A DNA stretch of 64,000 nt from Mytilus edulis (GCF_963676685.1 NC_092353.1:29698001-29762000); one strand, 5' to 3'; shown: positions 1 through 52,829, counted from the first letter of the stretch. Notes: generated from the sequence alone by a model not told the origin. Made by a program: numbers and translations.

Positions 1-727
1 TATAATAACTTGCTAATGGTTCTAATCTAAATCTGGCTTTTGGGAAATGTACTATTTATTCCTGTAATCTTACTTTTTTTTTAAGATGTGGCATCTTTAC
101 CTCCTGTATGACTTATAATCGAATCTGACTTATCACAAGTTTTTTTTTTGTTTTTTTTTTTTGCTTATTACTGGGAATACATGCGGGTGTCTGAAGAAAG
201 TCTGTAATTTAGACCATCTGAGTACACTTTGATCGGCATTTATCTTTGTATATTATAATGGTTGCCATTCATCGTTTTACTAAATTTTTATTCCCAGTTC
301 AGTATGTTTTTCACTGCCTGTAAACAAAGATATAATAGAAAGACATGTACTTAAATGAAATCACCTTTATTGCAACAATCATATCATCTTAGATAGTGTT
401 TGTATATAATTCACAATATGTTATATAACAGATATATTCATTGCCTGCATTGTATAATTTAAATTTTATCAATTTTCTAATTATACTGCTAAATGATAAA
501 TAATTCAAAACAACTTTGCTGGAATATGTTACTTTGTTTCGGTTTATTACTTTTTATATATATTATAAAGAAAAGGATTTCGAGGTCACTGAATTTGAGG
601 CCTCGAAGTACTAAGTAACTGCATGTTTTTCGAGTCATATTTGTTTCTCACATAAAACACAATTATTGTTTTCTGGTTGATCACCAAGGACGTTCGTGCC
701 TAGTACAATCTATTTAAGGCATATTTC

Positions 728-783
728 AATTGTAAACATTATGAAACAAAACTTAAGGATGAATATACACAGGTTCGTTTGAT
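728..783 (+). repeat. 56-bp perfect direct repeat, left copy
   Basis: aattgtaaacattatgaaacaaaacttaaggatgaatatacacaggttcgtttgat is identical to 6237-6292. Confidence 0.95.
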
Positions 784-856
784 GGATGTAATTTTTATAT
801 GGATTAGATACACATGTTTATTTTTATGCAATATTTTTATTTTGTAATTATTTAAA

Positions 857-2050
857 ATGGCTTCAAAGAAACGAAAATCCGCTAATGTTGTAAATTCAAA
901 TGATTCTAGCAAAAAATCAAAAGAGGAATTAATAGCAGAACTAATTGTGATTGGAGTTAATGCTCCTGCTTCATTTAGCCAAAAACAATTACAAGCTTTG
1001 TTACACTCAAATCGTCAACCTATGCCTGCTGTTAATGTGCAAACAAATGATGACACAGAAGTAGTCAATGATATCATATCAGAGAAAACTATTCGTGAAC
1101 TATCGGCCAATGTTAAATCGTTGACCGAAACAGTTAAAAGTCAAGGAGAAATTCTTAAAACAGTAGTGGATCTTCAAAAGAATGCTACCGGGAATGATGT
1201 ATCGCATACTGGTACTCAAATTCAATCGTCATCTCAATTTATCGAAACACAGGGATATAGTGCTTCCGGGAAAGTGTCTGTTGGTATGTTTCCGCACATA
1301 CAAACAGTGTCACAAATCCAGCGACAAAATATTAAAGAAGGTAAGTACATTAATTTAGTTTCTTTGCTTATTCCTGTAAATGAAAATCAAAGTGATACAC
1401 AGCAAATAGAGGCAGATGGATCTATTTTCCTTCTTAAGCCAAAAGATCATCGCCTGCAGCGTGACCTATCTATCCAAGAATACATAGAGGCATTTAACAT
1501 TTACAAAAACATTGTGTGCGAATTCGAAGATTGTCGGGTAGAACTTGACATGTTTTTGCAAGATGTCATAGAAATGGCAACGAAGTTCAAAGGTAACATT
1601 TTCTATGAATACCATAAGGCCTTCGCTAAGAAAGTTGCGGCAATTAAATTAACAAAAGGTTTGACCGTCGACTGGTCAATCAGAGATGAGAAATTGTATT
1701 CTTCAGTTTGCTTAGGGAGAGCTATCAATACATGTGGCGTATGTGGAAGTTCATTGCATAGCACTGAAATGTGTTATTTATCCGATACATCACAGGGCAA
1801 AAACAACCATTCCCAACAAAAGCGCAATCCTACAACACCGTATTCTAAACCACAATCAGCCGATATTGACCAGTACGGAAGACCAAAGCTATTCCACAAA
1901 GGGAGAGAAATCTGCAACTATTATCTCGCTGGTAATTGCTACAGGGGATCCGCGTGCCGCTATGCTCATGTTGACATGAATATGAAATCGTCAACTCAAA
2001 TCAAACCCTCTACAAGTGTACCAAAAACAACCAAACAAGCAAATATATGA
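857..2050 (+). CDS. Gag-like ORF1 of the YR retrotransposon
   Basis: 397-aa intact ORF. Coiled-coil-like segment, CGVCGSSLHSTEMC knuckle and C-terminal CCCH finger (CNYYLAGNCYRGSACRYAH). Lies directly upstream of RT. Confidence 0.85.
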   Translation: MASKKRKSANVVNSNDSSKKSKEELIAELIVIGVNAPASFSQKQLQALLHSNRQPMPAVNVQTNDDTEVVNDIISEKTIRELSANVKSLTETVKSQGEILKTVVDLQKNATGNDVSHTGTQIQSSSQFIETQGYSASGKVSVGMFPHIQTVSQIQRQNIKEGKYINLVSLLIPVNENQSDTQQIEADGSIFLLKPKDHRLQRDLSIQEYIEAFNIYKNIVCEFEDCRVELDMFLQDVIEMATKFKGNIFYEYHKAFAKKVAAIKLTKGLTVDWSIRDEKLYSSVCLGRAINTCGVCGSSLHSTEMCYLSDTSQGKNNHSQQKRNPTTPYSKPQSADIDQYGRPKLFHKGREICNYYLAGNCYRGSACRYAHVDMNMKSSTQIKPSTSVPKTTKQANI

Positions 2051-3682
2051 CTAGATAATGATAATGTGTTAATGCATGCCACGACACCAATTAATGTAGA
2101 TAAGTTAGCATGGGAGCTACAGAGACATCCTGATAGATATTTCGTAAATTCATTAATTAACGGGTTACGTAAAGGATTTTTTACGGGCGTTTCATCTCTA
2201 CCGGAAAAGGTTTTAGAATGTAAAAACCTGCTTTCTACTACAAAATGTCCAGATGACGTGTCCGGATTAGTCAAATCAGAGTTAGACAATAATTTTGTTA
2301 TAGGCCCATTTACGAAAGCCCCTTTTGATATATACAGGGTTAGTCCTGTTGGCATTGTTGAAGGTAAATATTCTAAAAAGAAAAGACTTATACTTGATTT
2401 ATCTGCACCTCACAATAGTGATGAGCATAGTAGTGTCAACGACCTCATCAACAAAGAAGATTTTTCGTTTTCGTATATTAAAATCGATGATGCCATTAAA
2501 ATCATCAAAGAATACGGTTTTGCCTCAAGATGTTGTAAATTGGACGTATCTAATGCATTTAAATTAATCCCTATTCATCCGAGTTTATGGCATTTATATG
2601 GATTTAAATAGGAAAATATGTATTACTTTTACACTAGATTAGCATTTGGGTGTCGTTCCAGTCCTAAAATTTTTGACAATTTATCTATCGCTATGTGTTG
2701 GATTTTACACAATAATTATGGAATTAATACAGTTCTACATCTACTAGATGATTTCTTAACAATCGACAGACCGTCAGCAAATGCCGACGCTACTATGAAA
2801 ACTTTAGTTTCCGTGTTTGCTTCACTTGAAATTCCGATCGCAAAACATAAAACTTTAGGACCGGTAACATGCATCGAATACTTAGGTATAATATTGGACA
2901 CTATTCGTATGGAAGCTAGATTACCCGAAAAGAAATTATGTCGAATTAAGGAATACCTATTGTTTTTCCTCAATCGCAAAACATGTACAAAACGTGAGAT
3001 GTTAAGTTTATTGGGGCATTTAAATTTTGCTATGAGAGTCATTATTCCTGGGAGATCGTTTATATCTTATCTACTTAACATAGCTCACTCTGTTAAAGAA
3101 CTTCATCACCATGTCACTTTAAATTCTAGTTGTAGAAATGATTTATCATTGTGGCATAAGTTCTTAGATCAGTGGAATGGAATTTCTTTCTTTATTGATG
3201 ATAATATAGTAAATGCGTCTGATTTTGATTTATATACTGATGCTGCGTCAACCGTGGGATTTGGAGGTTATTTCAAAAATCGATGGTTTCAAGCGTTATG
3301 GCCCAAAGAAATGAAATTAGATAAGGAATTATCAATGTCTATGGCTTACATGGAATTATATCCTATAGTAATTGCTGCTATTATATGGGGTGATGAGTGG
3401 TCAGGGAAGCGTATTCTATTTTACTGTGATAATATGGCAACAGTTTTAATTATAAAGAAAGGGAGATCAAAATCATTAGAAATTATGAGATTAATGAGAC
3501 GTCTAACTTGGTGTTCCGCAAAATATAATTTTATTATTCACGCTACTCATGTAGCCGGAAAATGTAATACTATAGATGATGCTCTCTCTCCATTTCAGAT
3601 GGATCGTTTTCGTCAACTGTGTCCGACAGCATCAGAGGAACCTTGTCACTGCCCGCCCCACTCAGAAATTCTGTGGAATTAA
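2051..3682 (+). pseudogene. Reverse transcriptase-RNase H of the YR retrotransposon, one premature stop
   Basis: ORFs 2066-2611 and 2618-3682 share a frame and are split by TAG at 2609-2611 (GFK*ENMYY; Trp expected). RT motifs: KKRLILDLS, KLDVSNAFK, LAFGCRSSPKIF, HLLDDFL, YLGIILD. RNaseH motifs: LYTDAAS, MELYPI, FYCDN, HVAGKCN..DALS. Confidence 0.9.
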
Positions 3683-4655
3683 GTTGTGTGATTAATAATT
3701 TGTGGAGTAAAAGTATTAATAGTGCTACAAGAGATGTGTACACATCTGGATATAAGTGTTTTCTCAAATTTCGTACCTCTCAATTCGAGGGAGAAAATAT
3801 TGGAAATGTAATGTCTAATATTTCCGAGGATATATTAATTTGTTTTGTATCATATTGTCAGTCAGTGTTAGATTTGAAATATTCTACTATCAAGTTATAT
3901 CTAGCTGGAATATGTCATTTTTCTATTGCAAATTGTAGTGTCAATCCTTTAGTAGATAATGTAGGTAAACCTTTGCTACGTTTACAAAATATTCTAAATG
4001 GTATAAAGAAAACTGAAAACAAAAGTGTGCGACAAAAACTACCGATTACTTATAGTGTGCTGCAACAGATTTACCAACATTTACAGAAAAGTATTTTCGA
4101 TCCGCATTTAGATTTTACTATGTTAACTGCATCTGTTATAGGTTTTTTCGGTTTCCTGCGTTGTTCTGAATTTACATGCAAACAGTCATTTGATTCAGCT
4201 TTGAATTTAACTATGGATGATGCAGTATTTTTATCTGATTGTCAAGTTAATCTATGTTTGAAGGCATCCAAAACCGACATTTTCCGTCATGGAGTAATCT
4301 ATTTAAAACTAATAACAATATTTGTCCATATGTACAGTTGTCAAAATATGTAACATCCAGAAAAATGAACGGTGCAACAGATAATGATCCGCTATTGGTT
4401 GACAGTAGTAATTTAGCTTTACGCCGATCGTTATTTATAGACAAATTGAAAACAATTCTATCACACTTGGGTTTAAATGCCGATAAATATAGTGGACATT
4501 CTTTCCGAATAGGAGCAGCTACAACTTGTAGTTCTAATGGTATCCAAGATCATATGATTCAAACTTTAGGACGTTGGAAATCTGACTGCTACAGTCGTTA
4601 TATAAGAACATCTGAAGTTGACATTCGTCAAGCTCTTTCGAAAATGTGTAAATAA
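3599..4655 (+). pseudogene. Tyrosine recombinase of the retrotransposon, one frameshift near 4297
   Basis: ORFs 3619-4353 and 4254-4655 together supply the catalytic R (GFLRCSEF), K (SKTD), HxxR (GHSFRIGAAT), W (GRWKS) and Y (SRYIR). The frame switches at HGVI/LFKTNNNICP. Confidence 0.9.
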
Positions 4656-5734
4656 TTACGATTCAAACTTTGTTAGAAGGGAAATTAGTGATTCGTTATT
4701 ATAATTTTTATTTTTTGTTTTGTATTTAAGAAGACTATCGATTTCTGCTTATTTTTGTAAAGTTTGCTCTAATTAGTCGAAAACATATAAATAAGTACCA
4801 ATATTCAATTTGGCACAACCACTGTCTCGGAATAATTTTGGGGATACTCAATGCGTTACAAGGGCAGCATGTGTAGCATTTCGTTTGCATGGGCAATGTA
4901 ATAATGAATTTCATCCATTCTTTACTTGTCACAAAATTATTATCTGAGTTCTCAGGCAGCCCTGAATAAAATGGATAACTAGGCAGCCCTCTCGTCGGGT
5001 GAACGAATCATTTGTTTGTCCATTTGACAGTTCTTTTGGATACATGTTTTAGTTTGCAAATGGTTTTTTCACTCGAGGTTATCCGTCTCAGGTTGCAAAG
5101 TGAGCCCATACCCTCTAAGCATGGGCTGGGCCAGCGCTCAACATGCAGGTATTAAAATTAATTAAATAAACTAAAAGAGTGGGTATACTTGAGTTACATA
5201 TGTTTGACATGGGATGGGCCAGCGCTCAACATGTCACTCGTAGAGAGGTATTTTGAAGTAACATATAATTGTTCTTTGAATTATGCTTCGGGCTCTTGTA
5301 AATACTCTCTTTTAAAAGGCTCGCTTTGCTATTAGGTTCACATTGTTTGAGGTTTCATTCAATACTCTACGAGTTATTTTTCTGTTTGATGTATACTAAA
5401 GTGGCTCGTGACTTTCTCCTTAAAGTATATGGTGAAAGTTATTTGAAGTCACGGTACCACATCTACACTCTGTCGTCAAGTGCAAGTGCCGCGATAGATG
5501 CTCGAATAATGTGAATTTAATTGAGATATGTATTTTATTTTTTATTTTTTAAATACATATCAATTGCTAGCATGTTGCCCGTAACGTCAATTTTATATTT
5601 TGTATTTTTTATTATATTATGTTTTTATTACTTTTGTATAAATATTATGTCCTGAATACAAGCCTGTGTAATTATATATAATAAATATTAGTCATTCTTA
5701 ATTGATTTGATTACTTTAACTTAGGTGGCAATTT

Positions 5735-6100
5735 GAGTTGGTTGACCGTTATGGAATAACCGTTTCACAAATGATATCGGATATGTTCCTTACGTCGTAA
5801 CTACAATCCCCTTCCCTTTCATGAATATGACCTACCGAATTAGACAATTTACCGGATTTGTAATCACATAAGCAACACGACGGGTGCCACATGTGGAGCA
5901 GGATCTGCTTACCCTTCCGGAGCACCTGAGATCACCCCTAGTTTTTGGTGGGGTTCGTGTTGTTTATTCTTTGGTTTTCTGTGTTGTGTCGTGTGTACTA
6001 TTGTTTTTCTGTTTGTCTTTTTCATTTTTGGCCATGGCGTTGTCAGTTTGTTTTGGATTTGTGAGTTTGACTGTCCCTTTGGTATCTTTCGTCCCTCTTT
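5735..6100 (+). mobile_element. 3' fragment of a dispersed Penelope-like retroelement family
   Basis: Closely similar to 7318-7690 and 22355-22720. Encodes the RT C-terminal peptide ELVDRYGITVSQMISDMF followed by a shared 3' tail. Confidence 0.7.
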
Positions 6101-6236
6101 TGCTATACTTCATCAGTCGTTCTAATTCTGCATCTATGACAGATCTAATCTGTACCGTTACACACATTTAAATCTTAAACAGCTGGAGAAAGTTCATCGC
6201 TCGTTCAAATCTTTATCAATAGAAACACGGCTCATA

Positions 6237-6292
6237 AATTGTAAACATTATGAAACAAAACTTAAGGATGAATATACACAGGTTCGTTTGAT
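6237..6292 (+). repeat. 56-bp perfect direct repeat, right copy
   Basis: Identical to 728-783. Confidence 0.95.
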
Positions 6293-6337
6293 AGGCGTCT
6301 GACATTTATCAAATGGAATTACATATAAACAATTTGG

Positions 6338-6344
6338 TATAAAA
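6338..6344 (+). promoter_or_regulatory. Probable TATA box of the F-type lectin gene
   Basis: TATAAAA about 105 bp upstream of the ATG at 6443, with an Inr-like TCAGTT at 6373-6378. Confidence 0.45.
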
Positions 6345-6442
6345 ACCCTTATGATTCATGCCTTTACAGCATTCAGTTTTTTATAGTGTTAAAGAAACGA
6401 CGGATTAAGCTTTATTTCAGAGCTGTATATCGGTATACTAAC

Positions 6443-9400
6443 ATGATGATCGTTAGAGAGCGTTTTACAATTTTACTGTTTTGCCTTACATGTACAGTTC
6501 ATATGTTTGCTGCAAAGTCTTGCAAAGGGAGAACATGTGATGTACGGATGCCGTTACTAGACAATATGAAGGCTCCACTTGTAGCAGAACTTGACGTCTC
6601 TGAAGTTAATAGAGAACTGAAGCAATACATCGAAATCAGTATTAATTCAACGTACAATGAGAATATTGAAGAAATGATTGTTAAAAACTTAGGAGTGCTC
6701 AAGTCTATGATGTTAAAGGAATATTCAAACGAAAAAAAGAGCACAAAACATATGTTTGATATTCAAATTGTTAATATGTTGGATAGTTTGAAAGCAAGAC
6801 AGGATTATCTACAAACAGAATTAAAGGAATATTCCTTTAATTTATCTATTTCTGCTGAACACTTTGAGCAAACATTGATAGATTTGGTACGTGATGTCGA
6901 GGGGAAACTTGATGCAGTGTTTCTTAATATGACCAGACATTACAAACAAAAAATCAATAAACTTTCCGATCGTTTGAAGAAGGAATTCGTCGATTTTCAA
7001 GAAAGTACAGATGACTGGAAAAATAACATCACCCAAACATTATTAGGTAAGCCGATGTTACTAACTTAAGAATGTTCACTATTCTAGTTTTTGACTTTTT
7101 GTCAAATATTCAGAATCCTCTAGTTTTATCCATGTTAGTGCCCCCAAAAACTTCCCCGCTAACCCTTATTTTTCTTTTCATAATTTTACTACATATTGTT
7201 TAAAATGTCTGTTTTGGAACTTCTTAGGAAGAAAGATAAGAAGTTATCAATATCCTTTAACTTTACTTTCCGCTATATAGATGATGTTCTCTCCGTAAAT
7301 TTTACGGACGCCATCATGAGTTGGTTGACCGTTATGGAATAACCGTTTCACAGATGATATTGGATATGTTCCTTACGTCGTAACTACAATCCCCTCCCAT
7401 ATTCATGAATGTGACCTACCGAATTAGACTGTTTACTGGGTTTGTAATAACATGAGCCACACGACGGGTGCCACATGTGAAGCAAGATCTACTTTTTCTT
7501 CCGGAGCACCTTAGATCACCCCCAGTTTTGGTGGGGTTCGTGTTGCTTAGTCTTTAGTTTTCTATGATGCATCATGTAAACTATTATTTGTCTGTTTGTC
7601 TTTTTTCATTTTTAGCCATGGCTTTGTCAGTTTATTTTCGATCTATGACTGAGTTTGACTGTCCCGCTGGTATCTTTCCCCTCTTCTTTATAAATATTGG
7701 TCAGGTAATTTTTTTAACGATACAAAATTGTCATATTGTTTATAGACTATAAACGGGAAATACATTTTTTATAGTGATAAATAGAAAATTACACCACAAA
7801 TTGACTACTGGGCTGGTGATACCCTCGGGGACGGAAACGTCCACCAGCTATGGCATCGACCCAGTGGTGTGAATAGTTATCAAAAATATTCTGTTGGAAT
7901 TTTTTCTATGTAAAATACAGCCTTAAAATATGATAAACACATAGTTTTCATTATCAATATGAAAAGTCTTTCACGTGAATAACAAACATCTATCGAAATT
8001 TGCACATTTTATTTAATATCTAGACCGCTTGCTATCTGCTTTTTCAAAATAGAAGAAGGAGGAAGATACCCCAGCTACCTTAACTTAGTTTTTTTTATCA
8101 TGTCAATTGCTACTGATTTTTCTCCTTGTTGCAGGCATATACTGTGGATTCATTTATTTTCGTGGGTATCAATTTTTGTGGTTAAAGGAAAACTTTCATA
8201 ATCTTAGATATTTGATTTCGTAGTTTTGCCAATCTCTGCATACAAAGCCTGTGCGAAATGTATAATTCGTCGACGTTTGAATTCGTGGTGCACCTGTATC
8301 CACGAAAAAAAAATTTCAACAAAGTATTAAAGAAGTCACAATAACTGCTAACATCCACTTCATTTGACCTCTGTTGGATAGTTGTCAAGTTGGTTATCAT
8401 ACCACATCTCTTTTTATATGTGTTTATATAACATACCAGAAAATAGTAGCTAGGGAAAAGGCAATCGGCAAAAACTGCAAAAACATACAAATCTATAAAA
8501 CCAATGCTAGACTTTTATTAATCTAATTGTAATATCGGTTTCGTTATTGCAATTATTCGTTCCCTTTGTATCCAAACTTTATGTAAAGTCATATCAAAGA
8601 TTATTGTTGATGTCCTACTTCAATAAACATACAATTTTTTGTTGAGAAACAGTGCTAGTTTACATTCAAACTTGATACATCTTGGGTATCACGATTGTAC
8701 ATTCAACATCATGTCAGAAACTATTTTTGAGAGAGATTTTTAAATCTACGAAATTCTTCTGTCCACTTTAAAATTGGATTTATAAACAACAATGTAAAAA
8801 CATCAAGCTATATGATCATGATACTTAAATCATATTAAAAGCTTTCTGAAGTGTTGTCTAAGTGTGTCATTTTCGAATTATAGTGTATTTCTTAACTTAA
8901 TGTTTTTTTAGACAAGTACATCATTGAAGTTTCCTTAGATGACAAACATGTACAGCAAAGTTCAGAATATTACACCAAGACGTTTCCTGCAAGTAATGCC
9001 ATTGATGGTGATCTCTCCACATTCTCACATACGTCGTCACAAACCAATCCATTTTGGATTCTTGACCTGGGAACCGTGTTTACAGTGAAAAGAATACAAG
9101 TCTTTGCTCGTACAGACTGTTGTGGTAAGTTAAAAAAAAAACTGGTGACAACTATTCTTTTTCATTGTGAAAATGTGAACGATATCATGATTGTTTTTTA
9201 AACCTTTTACAGAAATATGGTTATCCACTGTTGTGCGCTGTGTATAAAAAGTAAAATGTATATATAACATTAAACCTCGACAGCTGCATATAGTTCCTTA
9301 AACATTCTTCTTCATTTTGTAATTACCTAAATTATTTTCTATTTTTGTGATGAATTGACGTCCATTATTGATGAGAACGCAAGTCGCAAGTTTCAGAAAC

Positions 9401-22074: not shown

Positions 22075-22720
22075 AACAAAACTTTACGACAAAAGACAAA
22101 AGAAGACAAAAAAAAAGACAAAAGAGATGATTTCAGCTTTCCAATTTTGAACTTTCCATTTCTAAGTAGCAACATTCCAGCAGCACCTGCATACGGGGTT
22201 TATATCTCCCAATTGATACGATATTCCCGTGCTTGCATTTCCTATCATGACTTTCTTGATAGGGGATTGCTGCTCACAAGGAAGCTATAAAACCAAGAGT
22301 TCCGAATGGTGAAGTTGAAATCATCCCTTCGTAAATTTTACGGACGCCATCATGAGTTGGTTGCCCGTTATAGAATAACCTTTTCACAAATGATATCGGA
22401 TATGTTCCTTACGTCGTAACTACAATCCCCTTCCCTTTCATGAATGTGCCCTACCGAATTAGACTATTTACCGGATTTGTTGTAACATGAGCAAAACAAG
22501 ACGGGTGCCGTATGTGGAGCAGAATCTGCTTACCCTTCCGGAGCACCTGAGTTCACCCCTAGTTTTTGGTGGGGTTCGTGTTGTTTATTCTTTAGTTTTC
22601 TATGTTGTCTCATGTGTACTATTGTTTGTCTGTTTGTCTTTTTCATTTTTTGCCATGGCGTTGATAGTTTATTTTCCGATTTGTGAGTTAGGCTGTCTCT
22701 CTGGTATCTTTCGTCCCTCT
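22075..22720 (+). mobile_element. Penelope-like RT C-terminal fragment with 3' tail
   Basis: Encodes TKLYDK..RDDFSFPILNFPFLSSNIPAAPAYGVYISQLIRYSRAC..KFYGRHHELV. No GIY-YIG domain seen after it. Confidence 0.75.
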
Positions 22721-51400: not shown

Positions 51401-52829
51401 ACAAAACCATCTACACCTGAACCAACTAATGCATCTACTCCTGAACCTACTAGACCATCTACACCAGAGCCAACAAAACCATCAACACCAGAACCAACAA
51501 AACCATCAACACCAGAACCAACTAAATCATCTACACCTGAACCAACCAATTCATCTACACCTGAACCTACCAGACCATCAACACCAGAACCAACAAAACC
51601 ATCAACACCAGAACCAACAAGACAGTCTACACCCGAACCAACCAAGCCATCTACACCAGAACCAACGAATGCATCTACTCCTGAACCTACTAGACCGTCT
51701 ACACCTGAACCAACAACACCGAAACCAAAGAAACCCACGCCATCACCAATAAACCCAGATTACTCAAAAGAACAACCAACACCATCCCCAACACTTCCAA
51801 CATTAAGTCTGTCATCGTCTGGTCCAAAAGGTAAACAGTTTTTTGATGTTATTTCAAAGTATTGCTCTATCTTTGTGTGACATGATATCAATCACAATAC
51901 TGACAAAACAAACTATACTAAAATAACTAGATGTAACACAATATGTGCTAATAAAAAATGATTTGACATTGACATCATAGGATTCATAAGTGAAAAGAGA
52001 CAGTTTCAAAGAAAAAAATAACATATAGGAATACTAGTACAATGAAGTAAAATAAACCAAATCTGCCAATGAATGTCTGCGGTAACAATAAAAAAAAGTC
52101 TTTTCAGTGAGGACACAAAATTCTAAGGAAAATGAAACAAAACAGATTTTTCATCTGACATAATATTTCTGCAAACTAGACATTTTTCGATGTATATGAA
52201 CATCTACGGTAATAATAGAAAAATGTCTATCAAATTAGTGAGAACACAAAAGTACTGATAAAAGAGGACAGAAAACACTCACTTGTCAATGTGGGTGAGA
52301 AGTTATTAATCAAACGACTTTTGTCAATGTATGTTTTATATTCAAACAACAAATACATATGGTCATATTTGAATTATTTTTGTTCAGATCTTGTTGACGG
52401 TCAAACGGATAATCACTATGTTTGAATATAAACGTTCCTGTATACTTAATCTAATTTACTTGCTTCTTTACAGTATGTAGTACAAATTTTGTGGAACCTG
52501 TTCCAACGTGTTGTAAAGTGTGCGCATGTCCAGGTGCACAGGTGTTTGGACGAGTAATAAATGAACTCGGTGAACCCATTCCTAATGCTGAAATCTCGTT
52601 CTCGGGTTGTGAATGTGTACGATATTTAACAGATCCATCTGGAAATTATGAAATCCTTAACATTTGTGTTGAAGGACATGAAATGTTATATGAACATCCG
52701 GGTTATATGGCCTCAAAAGTTTTACCAGTGCCTGTAGTACCAGGTGGAAAATTCTGGAAAGCAGATAACATTCTAAGAACAAAACCGGTTGTTCCCGGAC
52801 TTAATGTAACACAAACAGTTACTGGTTGA
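29203..52829 (+). CDS. Secreted ShKT-repeat mucin with CILP-like/carboxypeptidase-regulatory-like C-terminal domain, 16 exons, ~1401 aa
   Basis: Exons 29203-29308 (signal peptide MFSIILVLLAAVSLVNG), 30770-30880, 31854-31979, 35519-35569, 36061-36162, 36727-36837, 37174-37299, 39127-39177, 40670-40729, 41480-41590, 42033-42155, 42817-43002, 43925-44035, 44322-44441, 49476-51830, 52474-52829. All introns are GT-AG phase 1; total 4206 nt. Eight 6-Cys ShKT modules (C.D...C......C.......C...C..C). AATAAA at 53178. Confidence 0.85.
32685..35205 (-). mobile_element. 5'-truncated non-LTR retrotransposon (RTE-X-like LINE) in intron 3 of the ShKT gene
   Basis: RT ORF 33739-35097 (FRPITVISC, QAGFR, FVDFAKAFDTV, GVRQG, LYADD), frameshift ~33770, C-terminal ORF 32849-33754 with IETGRW..C..C...GDEFHY..C. 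3' AATAAA plus (GAATCTT)n tail at 32685-32712. tgtat duplicated at 32680-32684 and 35206-35210. No endonuclease present. Clade is from motif recall. Confidence 0.88.
36354..36512. mobile_element. Short MITE
   Basis: TIRs cagaggcggat / atccgccactg, with gtata on both flanks. Confidence 0.7.
38262..39002 (+). mobile_element. Non-autonomous Helentron/HINE-like element with ~400-bp internal duplication
   Basis: Starts actagaacacacccgtgatatcgcgggt (small palindrome). 38420-38575 resembles 38822-38975. Ends ..attatagat. Confidence 0.5.
45353..45417 (+). repeat. (AAT)n microsatellite
   Basis: About 21 perfect AAT units. Confidence 0.95.
45663..47048 (+). CDS. DUF1647-like (putative GT-A-related) membrane protein, single coding exon, nested in intron 14 of the ShKT-mucin gene
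   Basis: 461-aa intact ORF with TM LILGLVQFILITGTMTFFIYMV. Motifs IITAMS, LVIYDFGLS, CEIRPFPFEKF, YALKPLMI and VIWAD.YIRF match my recollection of DUF1647. Probable 5' exon ending 45227 (ATG|gtaaga), acceptor at 45628. Confidence 0.75.
   Translation: MLCLYLSILAIWKGILCIRRRRRSKKDIEIETICEKDAIENDEKPDKKKCSGKHLILGLVQFILITGTMTFFIYMVNERTEKSCGQLEIPDKWKCQFNHFFNTNHEVKVYQHFNCQSVTNKTFEENLNVIHGYASNMSDKITKVLNVRVSHSPFLNLFENKTKTKLELNSQLSKNESREEDNTQLPKLIQNEVKSFLYIIHKIGKSAHKPDYGKQPNKPASPAIITAMSDENINEGKAFLKNVVRKIYPLQDIQRLVIYDFGLSKDHINYLAIRCSFCEIRPFPFEKFGNLTIHYALKPLMIGLSLEEFKTVIWADPYIRFQPVYLSNVVKSAQKYGIQAAKNYENVRITNKDVRRNVIKYLGEETCMDTFDEIQSKFLVFSRDSSAYDIVLPWIQSSVGYGEMLKGNFNQSVTSIYNPVEETILDIILNRLYNRNMSSILMDMNDYVYIDKHVIYNAISH
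47415..47635 (+). mobile_element. Retrozyme fragment with core-mutated hammerhead (47547-47594)
   Basis: gagcgtca-CTAATGA-gttgttttatagac-GAAA-tgcgcgtc-tgacgc (G5 to A). Further decayed copies at ~47160-47245 and 48755-49110. Confidence 0.65.
49990..51720 (+). repeat. Coding minisatellite, 24-bp unit (STPEPTKP) with higher-order repeats
   Basis: acaccagaaccaacaaaaccatct repeats. A 72-bp super-unit occurs ~4 times at 50166-50455, and PTNASTPE-PTRPSTPE blocks recur. Confidence 0.95.

Follow-up and report, generated by a model that had tools for sequence, protein, structure and literature searches.

A candidate UGA-CUA readthrough junction between gag and pol in Ngaro-like tyrosine-recombinase retrotransposons of Mytilus

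We analysed a 64,000-nucleotide stretch of the Mytilus edulis genome (GCF_963676685.1 NC_092353.1:29698001-29762000), hereafter called the window. It contains a retroelement with the ORF order gag, RT/RNase H and tyrosine recombinase (YR), the last two recognised by RVT_1 and Phage_integrase matches below cut-off. The features of the element, all on the + strand, are as follows.

728..783, +: 56-nt exact direct repeat, copy 1, possible split-direct-repeat remnant
857..2050, +: gag-like ORF of 397 aa, start ATG 857, 84-99% identical to Mytilus proteins P0079, P0080, P0300 and P0304
gag aa 349-372: C-terminal CCCH zinc finger (Pfam zf-CCCH E=1.1e-5, above cut-off)
1338..1346, +: strong match to the 5' splice-site consensus AAG/GTAAGT in gag, phase 1
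2048..2054, +: gag stop with type II readthrough context TGA-CTA-G, read in the sequence
2051..2071, +: in-frame linker of 7 codons from the stop to the first pol AUG, as read in the window
2072..2074, +: in-frame AUG, an alternative initiation site at which gene callers start pol (family pol models begin MHATTP or MQATTP)
2051..3682, +: pol, RT-RNase H (Pfam RVT_1 E=7.6e-5, below cut-off), 98% identical to the intact protein P0130
2609..2611, +: copy-specific nonsense codon TAG inside RT
3580..4655, +: YR ORF, overlapping the end of pol, with a frameshift near 4299 (Pfam Phage_integrase E=1.2e-4, below cut-off)
3584..3598, +: candidate YAG splice acceptor, pyrimidine-rich (fraction 0.70), phase 1 for the YR frame
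6237..6292, +: 56-nt exact direct repeat, copy 2

We take pol to include RNase H from known motifs and synteny; no library match was found for it. Protease, DDE integrase and methyltransferase had no Pfam match at E<=0.1 in the five ORF pieces of the element, and pol ends at 3682. Ngaro-like YR retrotransposons are described as carrying gag, RT/RH and YR with a pol/YR overlap, no methyltransferase and direct repeats (PMC9210276, PMC3783388, PMC8547959). The window element fits this description because of its ORF order, its missing methyltransferase and its direct rather than inverted repeats. We therefore use Ngaro-like YR retrotransposon of Mytilus as a working label drawn from sequence, with RT trees that were built from search hits alone. 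DIRS1-like elements have inverted terminal repeats, an internal complementary region and a methyltransferase domain. Such an identity was considered and rejected: within 1-7000, inverted pairs reach at most 34 nt, at 74%, and there was no methyltransferase match. Split direct repeats follow the pattern A1...B1-A2-B2; the window shows one 56-nt exact pair only, with no B pair, and the related locus L005 has two nested repeat pairs, 98-100% identical, that are compatible with this pattern. The closest proteins come from M. edulis, M. trossulus, M. galloprovincialis and M. coruscus, intact M. edulis models being 98-99% identical. Within the window no second copy of the element was found, and a tblastn search with pol against phages and plasmids gave no match.

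The surrounding DNA holds other features. A dispersed repeat of ~365 nt, 87-91% identical between copies, occurs at 5734-6099, 7317-7685, 22353-22720 and 43347-43503 (the last partial), and one copy sits between the end of YR and the second 56-nt repeat. At 6329-7069 lies a 246-codon ORF, probably an exon of a host gene, in which a hydrophobic stretch follows the first Met; its DUF445 match is weak (E=0.019). About 49780-52000 is taken up by a long tandem array, 24 nt in period, whose GC and AT skew are strong.

At the window junction, gag ends AAT ATA TGA (2048-2050) and the same frame continues CTA GAT AAT GAT AAT GTG TTA ATG(2072) CAT GCC ACG ACA CCA into the RT region. An earlier interpretation of this DNA, the sequence-only reading, had gag stopping at this TGA and the same frame entering RT without overlap, and our reading bears this out: gag/pol overlap is absent, and both the -1 and the +1 frame meet stops after a few codons. 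In M. coruscus model P0012, DNDNVY stands immediately before MHATTP, so this stretch of the linker carries no indel. UGA followed by CUA or CGG defines type II readthrough (PMC3159437), and the window stop has this form.

The sequence-only reading further held that the frame contains no other stop and that it encodes a Gag-Pol fusion of ~941 aa. Both points fail for this copy. The TAG at 2609-2611 interrupts RT, placing two stops in the 941-codon span 857-3679, and the window copy therefore cannot give a 941-aa fusion. We attribute this TAG to copy-specific decay because a sense residue occupies this position in 11/11 other proteins that share the local RT motif; the YR ORF is frameshifted as well. 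The window element is a decayed copy, and whether its gag stop is programmed therefore had to be judged from relatives.

Related Mytilus proteins share the stop. In family A, 12/13 proteins with a gag tail (from M. edulis, M. galloprovincialis, M. coruscus and one ENA record) end at QANI, and the thirteenth, P0091 of M. coruscus, slipped to the +1 frame and ends QIYD. Solving both frames together yields TGA-Y-T, which the AG used as an acceptor by model P0012 narrows to TGACTAG or TGATTAG. Family B, a sister Mytilus family with gag 39% and pol about 67% identical to the window element, has 32 proteins with a gag tail: 14 end QAK(N/I), three end in the +1 frame, one ends in the -1 frame, one terminates prematurely, and the other 13 are models that connect to internal pol at differing points. 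Back-translation of the three family-B frames combined leaves TGACTAG as the sole solution, with the frame of family-B pol taken as in-frame. The contexts of both families are back-calculated from predicted proteins and pool different copies. No protein reads in frame across the gag stop in family A (0/13), family B (0/32) or family C (0/16). Judged from these predicted proteins, the gag stop is family-wide and no decay product, which largely refutes the possibility, raised by the sequence-only reading as a test of itself, that it is a nonsense mutation of one copy.

More distant relatives came from a genome-contig scan, which gave seven loci, L001-L007. These are eukaryotic-type retrotransposons in bacterial genome bins (Ca. 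Thiodiazotropha, Sedimenticola) and are probably host DNA contaminating symbiont bins. L001, available as real DNA and intact, has gag 30% and pol 54% identical to those of the window element. Its gag ends AAG AAA TGA CTA TTC, and pol stays open in the same frame for 562 codons. The 100% identity of its upstream repeats points to a young element. Within the L001 family, 14/16 proteins, one of them L001's own gag, stop at the aligned residue. Another, P0368, whose gag is 73% identical to that of L001, runs across the junction in the +1 frame; read in frame 0, it agrees with sibling gag P0370 at 8/8 residues, with sibling pol P0373 at 11/12 and with P0374 at 7/15, compared with 1/8 for sibling gag and 0/12 for sibling pol in a control frame. 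P0368 implies (T/C)GA followed by (C/T)TA, and places 29 codons between the stop and an anchor Lys, equal to L001.

Homologues that have diverged and whose downstream ORF is open and in frame keep the type II context, at two junctions read as DNA (window and L001) and three deduced from predicted proteins. Conservation of CTAG, which the sequence-only reading expected, thus holds in part: TGA-CTA is kept in frame in distant lineages, but the fourth-base G is not universal, L001 reading TGA CTA T. The hexamer TGACTA accounts for 31/8298 stop triplets in the window (0.37%) and 12/3794 in the fetched loci (0.32%); though rare, it is found again where gag ends in two distant lineages. Between the window and L001, the junctions match at 29/80 positions overall and are dissimilar outside one identical 7-nt block. 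As a counter-case, 1/15 other ORF stops in these elements, that of the L005 YR, is also TGA CTA. This L005 stop (5413-5418) is followed by a 44-codon open extension, probably by chance.

These observations bear on the explanation that the TGA is copy-specific nonsense in a naturally fused gag-pol ORF, or that its CUAG context arose by chance. The window copy is indeed decayed elsewhere, at TAG 2609 and in YR, and fish relatives do appear as fused gag-pol models. The lack of in-frame readers in all three families speaks against it, as does the recurrence in two distant lineages of a hexamer found at 0.3-0.4% of stop triplets; we consider it largely refuted and very improbable. The fused fish-type relatives (P0025, P0155, P0156, P0160, P0163, P0167, P0169 and P0195) are available as proteins only. 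They have a Lys/Asn-rich junction before YL(S/N)(T/S)P and could represent natural fusion, a slipped A-run or a predictor artefact. A profile search, which modelled 965 positions and was biased to fish-like elements, returned fused gag-pol proteins, none of them with X at a stop.

Pol might instead start at its own AUG (2072), by reinitiation after gag or from a shorter internal transcript, to give free RT-RNase H. This AUG lies only 21 nt past the stop, and family-A gene models, RefSeq included, begin at its position. Several other families also have Met there, with many pol calls starting at it, and family B permits AYG three codons after the stop. Moreover, a minor promoter is reported in the gag-pol junction of Tca2 (PMC2194720). 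Gene callers and the length floor of the search, however, favour Met starts; Met also occupies this position in L002, a member of the frameshift clade, and in the L001-family linker the called starts differ in position among relatives. L001 itself has Leu where the window has AUG 2072, and its first AUG after the stop is 72 codons in, within pol. Because that AUG lies past conserved pol sequence, reinitiation is possible for family A but cannot serve L001. An own-AUG model also leaves the in-frame TGA-CTA unexplained, and we regard it as unlikely.

Splicing offers another route around the stop. The phase-1 donor at 1340 is in frame with CTAG at 2054, and a join between them would give GagN-Pol, with CTAG being kept as an acceptor. 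M. coruscus model P0012 uses the AG of this CTAG with another gag donor, the 13/32 joined family-B models connect gag to pol, and in L001 the AGs at 2941 and 2980 are phase 1, their pyrimidine fractions being 0.65 and 0.55. Copia is known to set gag versus gag-pol by splicing (PMC2194720). The window acceptor at 2054, however, has no pyrimidine tract (fraction 0.35 vs an element median of 0.50), and L001 and P0368 keep TGA-(C/T)TA but not the G. The joined family-B models differ in the junction they use and lack the conserved start of pol, a pattern that predictor artefacts would produce. The donor, as G/GTARG, is partly kept in L002, L003 and L006 but is absent in L001. Splicing, furthermore, needs no in-frame UGA right before the acceptor. 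Removal of the gag stop by splicing is, on this evidence, quite improbable.

The same donor is in frame with TTTCAG at 3598, the candidate acceptor for YR, whose pyrimidine fraction of 0.70 is reached by 4% of the 205 AGs in the window element. A phase-1 YAG in frame for YR occurs at the matching pol position in L001 (4530), L002 (2285), L003 (4524), L005 (4354) and L006 (2321), with pyrimidine fractions of 0.60-0.70 across the six elements; this shared position may partly reflect amino-acid constraint on pol. None of the gene models examined contains a GagN-YR join, and the candidate splice is frame-compatible only.

The readthrough reading raises the question of a 3' stimulatory structure, for which the sequence-only reading proposed folding the downstream region. 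Folding with ViennaRNA, whose model excludes pseudoknots, revealed no stable 3' structure after the window stop relative to shuffles (z=+1.27, and +0.5 to +1.7 in most windows). A long-range duplex test stayed at control level for both the window and L001, and downstream of the L001 stop we found a local hairpin only, its best z=-3.3 being picked from 15 windows. A 3' stem-loop after an 8-12 nt spacer is frequent but non-obligatory in type II readthrough. UGA-CUA alone gave 1.5% readthrough in HEK-293T cells, and 3' structure proved unneeded in four vertebrate readthrough genes (PMC4132726), which matters here because the window has none. Type III readthrough, with UAG-G, a purine-rich spacer and a pseudoknot, was tried and rejected: the window codon is UGA-C, and ViennaRNA, without pseudoknots, gave no stable fold.

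Decoding of the UGA as selenocysteine, or a non-canonical bypass that needs distant signals as proposed for Tca2, would accommodate two observations: wherever the codon can be established it is UGA, and no local stimulatory structure turned up. Yet neither SECIS nor any other Rfam family matched window 500-6500 at E<=1, one weak miRNA match aside, and L001, L002 and L005 gave none at the Rfam gathering score. The conserved CUA at +1 to +3 is, by contrast, a prediction of plain type II readthrough, and we give these alternatives hardly any credence.

Relatives outside the TGA-CTA lineages show a different arrangement at the same place. The junction is readable in 5/7 loci, the omitted two being L007, which is decayed, and L004, which starts after the junction and forms a tandem pair with L003 on one contig. 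Pol is in frame in L001 and in the -1 frame in L002, L003, L005 and L006. The sequence-only reading had asked whether pol lies in another frame elsewhere, and the answer is divided: L001 repeats the in-frame TGA-CTA, but 4/5 readable fetched junctions have the -1 frame. In all four -1 loci a heptamer precedes the gag stop by 33-39 nt and is in the gag frame.

A_AAA_AAC heptamer, candidate -1 frameshift site: L002 711-717; L003 2956-2962; L005 2789-2795; L006 756-762

Sites of -1 frameshifting have the form X_XXY_YYZ, which A_AAA_AAC fits. Among Mytilus proteins, the family of P0014/P0152 contains the corresponding S-K-N peptide. Downstream of the four slippery sites, simple hairpins are not unusually stable, 52-88% of control pol windows folding as well (pseudoknots lie outside the model). 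In L002, a frameshift-type element, the gag stop overlaps the pol AUG (TAATG, 754-758). Because of the -1 pol frame together with A_AAA_AAC, these relatives seem to make Gag-Pol by recoding at this junction, and the gag/pol junction looks like a recoding site.

In a tree of 34 rows, the -1 loci L002, L003, L005 and L006 belong to a strongly supported group of 11 rows (100/98). A second clade unites families A and B (100/99), and a third holds L001 with its family; these latter two are not joined with support. The two TGA-CTA lineages being unjoined with support, readthrough would be old or would have arisen more than once.

Combining these observations, we propose, with a probability of roughly three in four, that Ngaro-like tyrosine-recombinase retrotransposons produce Gag-RT-RNaseH by type II UGA-CUA readthrough. 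In this model most ribosomes would halt at the gag UGA and release Gag. A small fraction, a few percent by analogy, would decode the leaky UGA-CUA(G) via a near-cognate tRNA and pass through the linker into RT-RNase H, producing a Gag-Pol fusion of about 940 aa. Because the element encodes no protease, the fusion would stay uncleaved and the enzyme would remain tethered to Gag. The proposal that a programmed, leaky UGA-CUA joins gag to RT-RNaseH therefore survives at the family level but not for the window copy, which has decayed.

We also lean, by a little, towards a broader picture in which Ngaro-like YR retrotransposons set their Gag:Gag-Pol ratio by recoding, with two devices switched at one junction: alphavirus-type readthrough at UGA-CUA, used by two or more deep lineages, and -1 frameshifting on A_AAA_AAC, used by another. 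The conserved phase-1 acceptor may in addition splice the recombinase onto GagN. Without a protease, every enzyme would then be a Gag fusion from one transcript.

UGA-CUA readthrough has well-known counterparts. Alphavirus nsP3/nsP4 and the vertebrate genes OPRL1, OPRK1, AQP4 and MAPK10 have the identical UGA-CUA or UGA-CUAG (PMC3159437, PMC4132726, PMC13517186), and in alphaviruses, as in the window element, the polymerase lies downstream in frame. Unlike these cases, the junction here lies in a eukaryotic retrotransposon, its readthrough is predicted, and the window showed no extended 3' stem-loop. MuLV likewise uses an in-frame gag stop to make a low-ratio Gag-Pol fusion (PMC2194720), which here is predicted. 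MuLV, a type III case, differs in having UAG, a purine-rich spacer, a pseudoknot and a pol-encoded protease, whereas the window has UGA-CUA, no such structure that we found, and no protease or DDE integrase. Candida albicans Tca2 shares a single in-frame UGA between gag and pol (PMC2194720), but it is an LTR element rather than a YR element and has a predicted pseudoknot in the junction. The Tca2 junction gave no readthrough in yeast reporters (PMC2194720), a caution for any claim of readthrough at a UGA junction. In Xenopus Ngaro elements the ORFs all overlap (PMC9210276); here the arrangement varies by lineage, gag being followed directly by in-frame pol in some and overlapping it at a -1 slippery site in others.

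Gag-pol readthrough in MuLV and in-frame stops in Tca2 and SIRE1 are known already (PMC2194720). Among the literature matches listed, we found no description of recoding in DIRS or Ngaro elements; the founding Ngaro paper (Goodwin and Poulter 2004) and the review by Poulter and Butler 2015 may already note the arrangement. Recoding is not addressed in the excerpts of PMC9210276, PMC8547959, PMC7192593, PMC3783388, PMC6681497, PMC3266345, PMC12440569 and 10.1101/2021.04.08.439009, and those on YR elements report overlap of the ORFs without stating how the downstream ones are expressed. The available part of a frameshifting review (PMC5009743) does not mention DIRS, Ngaro or tyrosine recombinase. 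In PMC10294476, 12/33 supplementary files held no junction match, and the excerpt describes its curated libraries as LINE, SINE and DDE/D. The mechanism is already known; the host element and the device switch would be new.

If true, this reading would give a precise, testable answer to how downstream ORFs are expressed in Ngaro-like elements and would add one more retroelement class to those using UGA-CUA readthrough. Readthrough and -1 frameshifting would be interchangeable within one group. Annotators who start pol at the first Met, invent introns to get past the stop or score it as decay would then be misreading intact elements.
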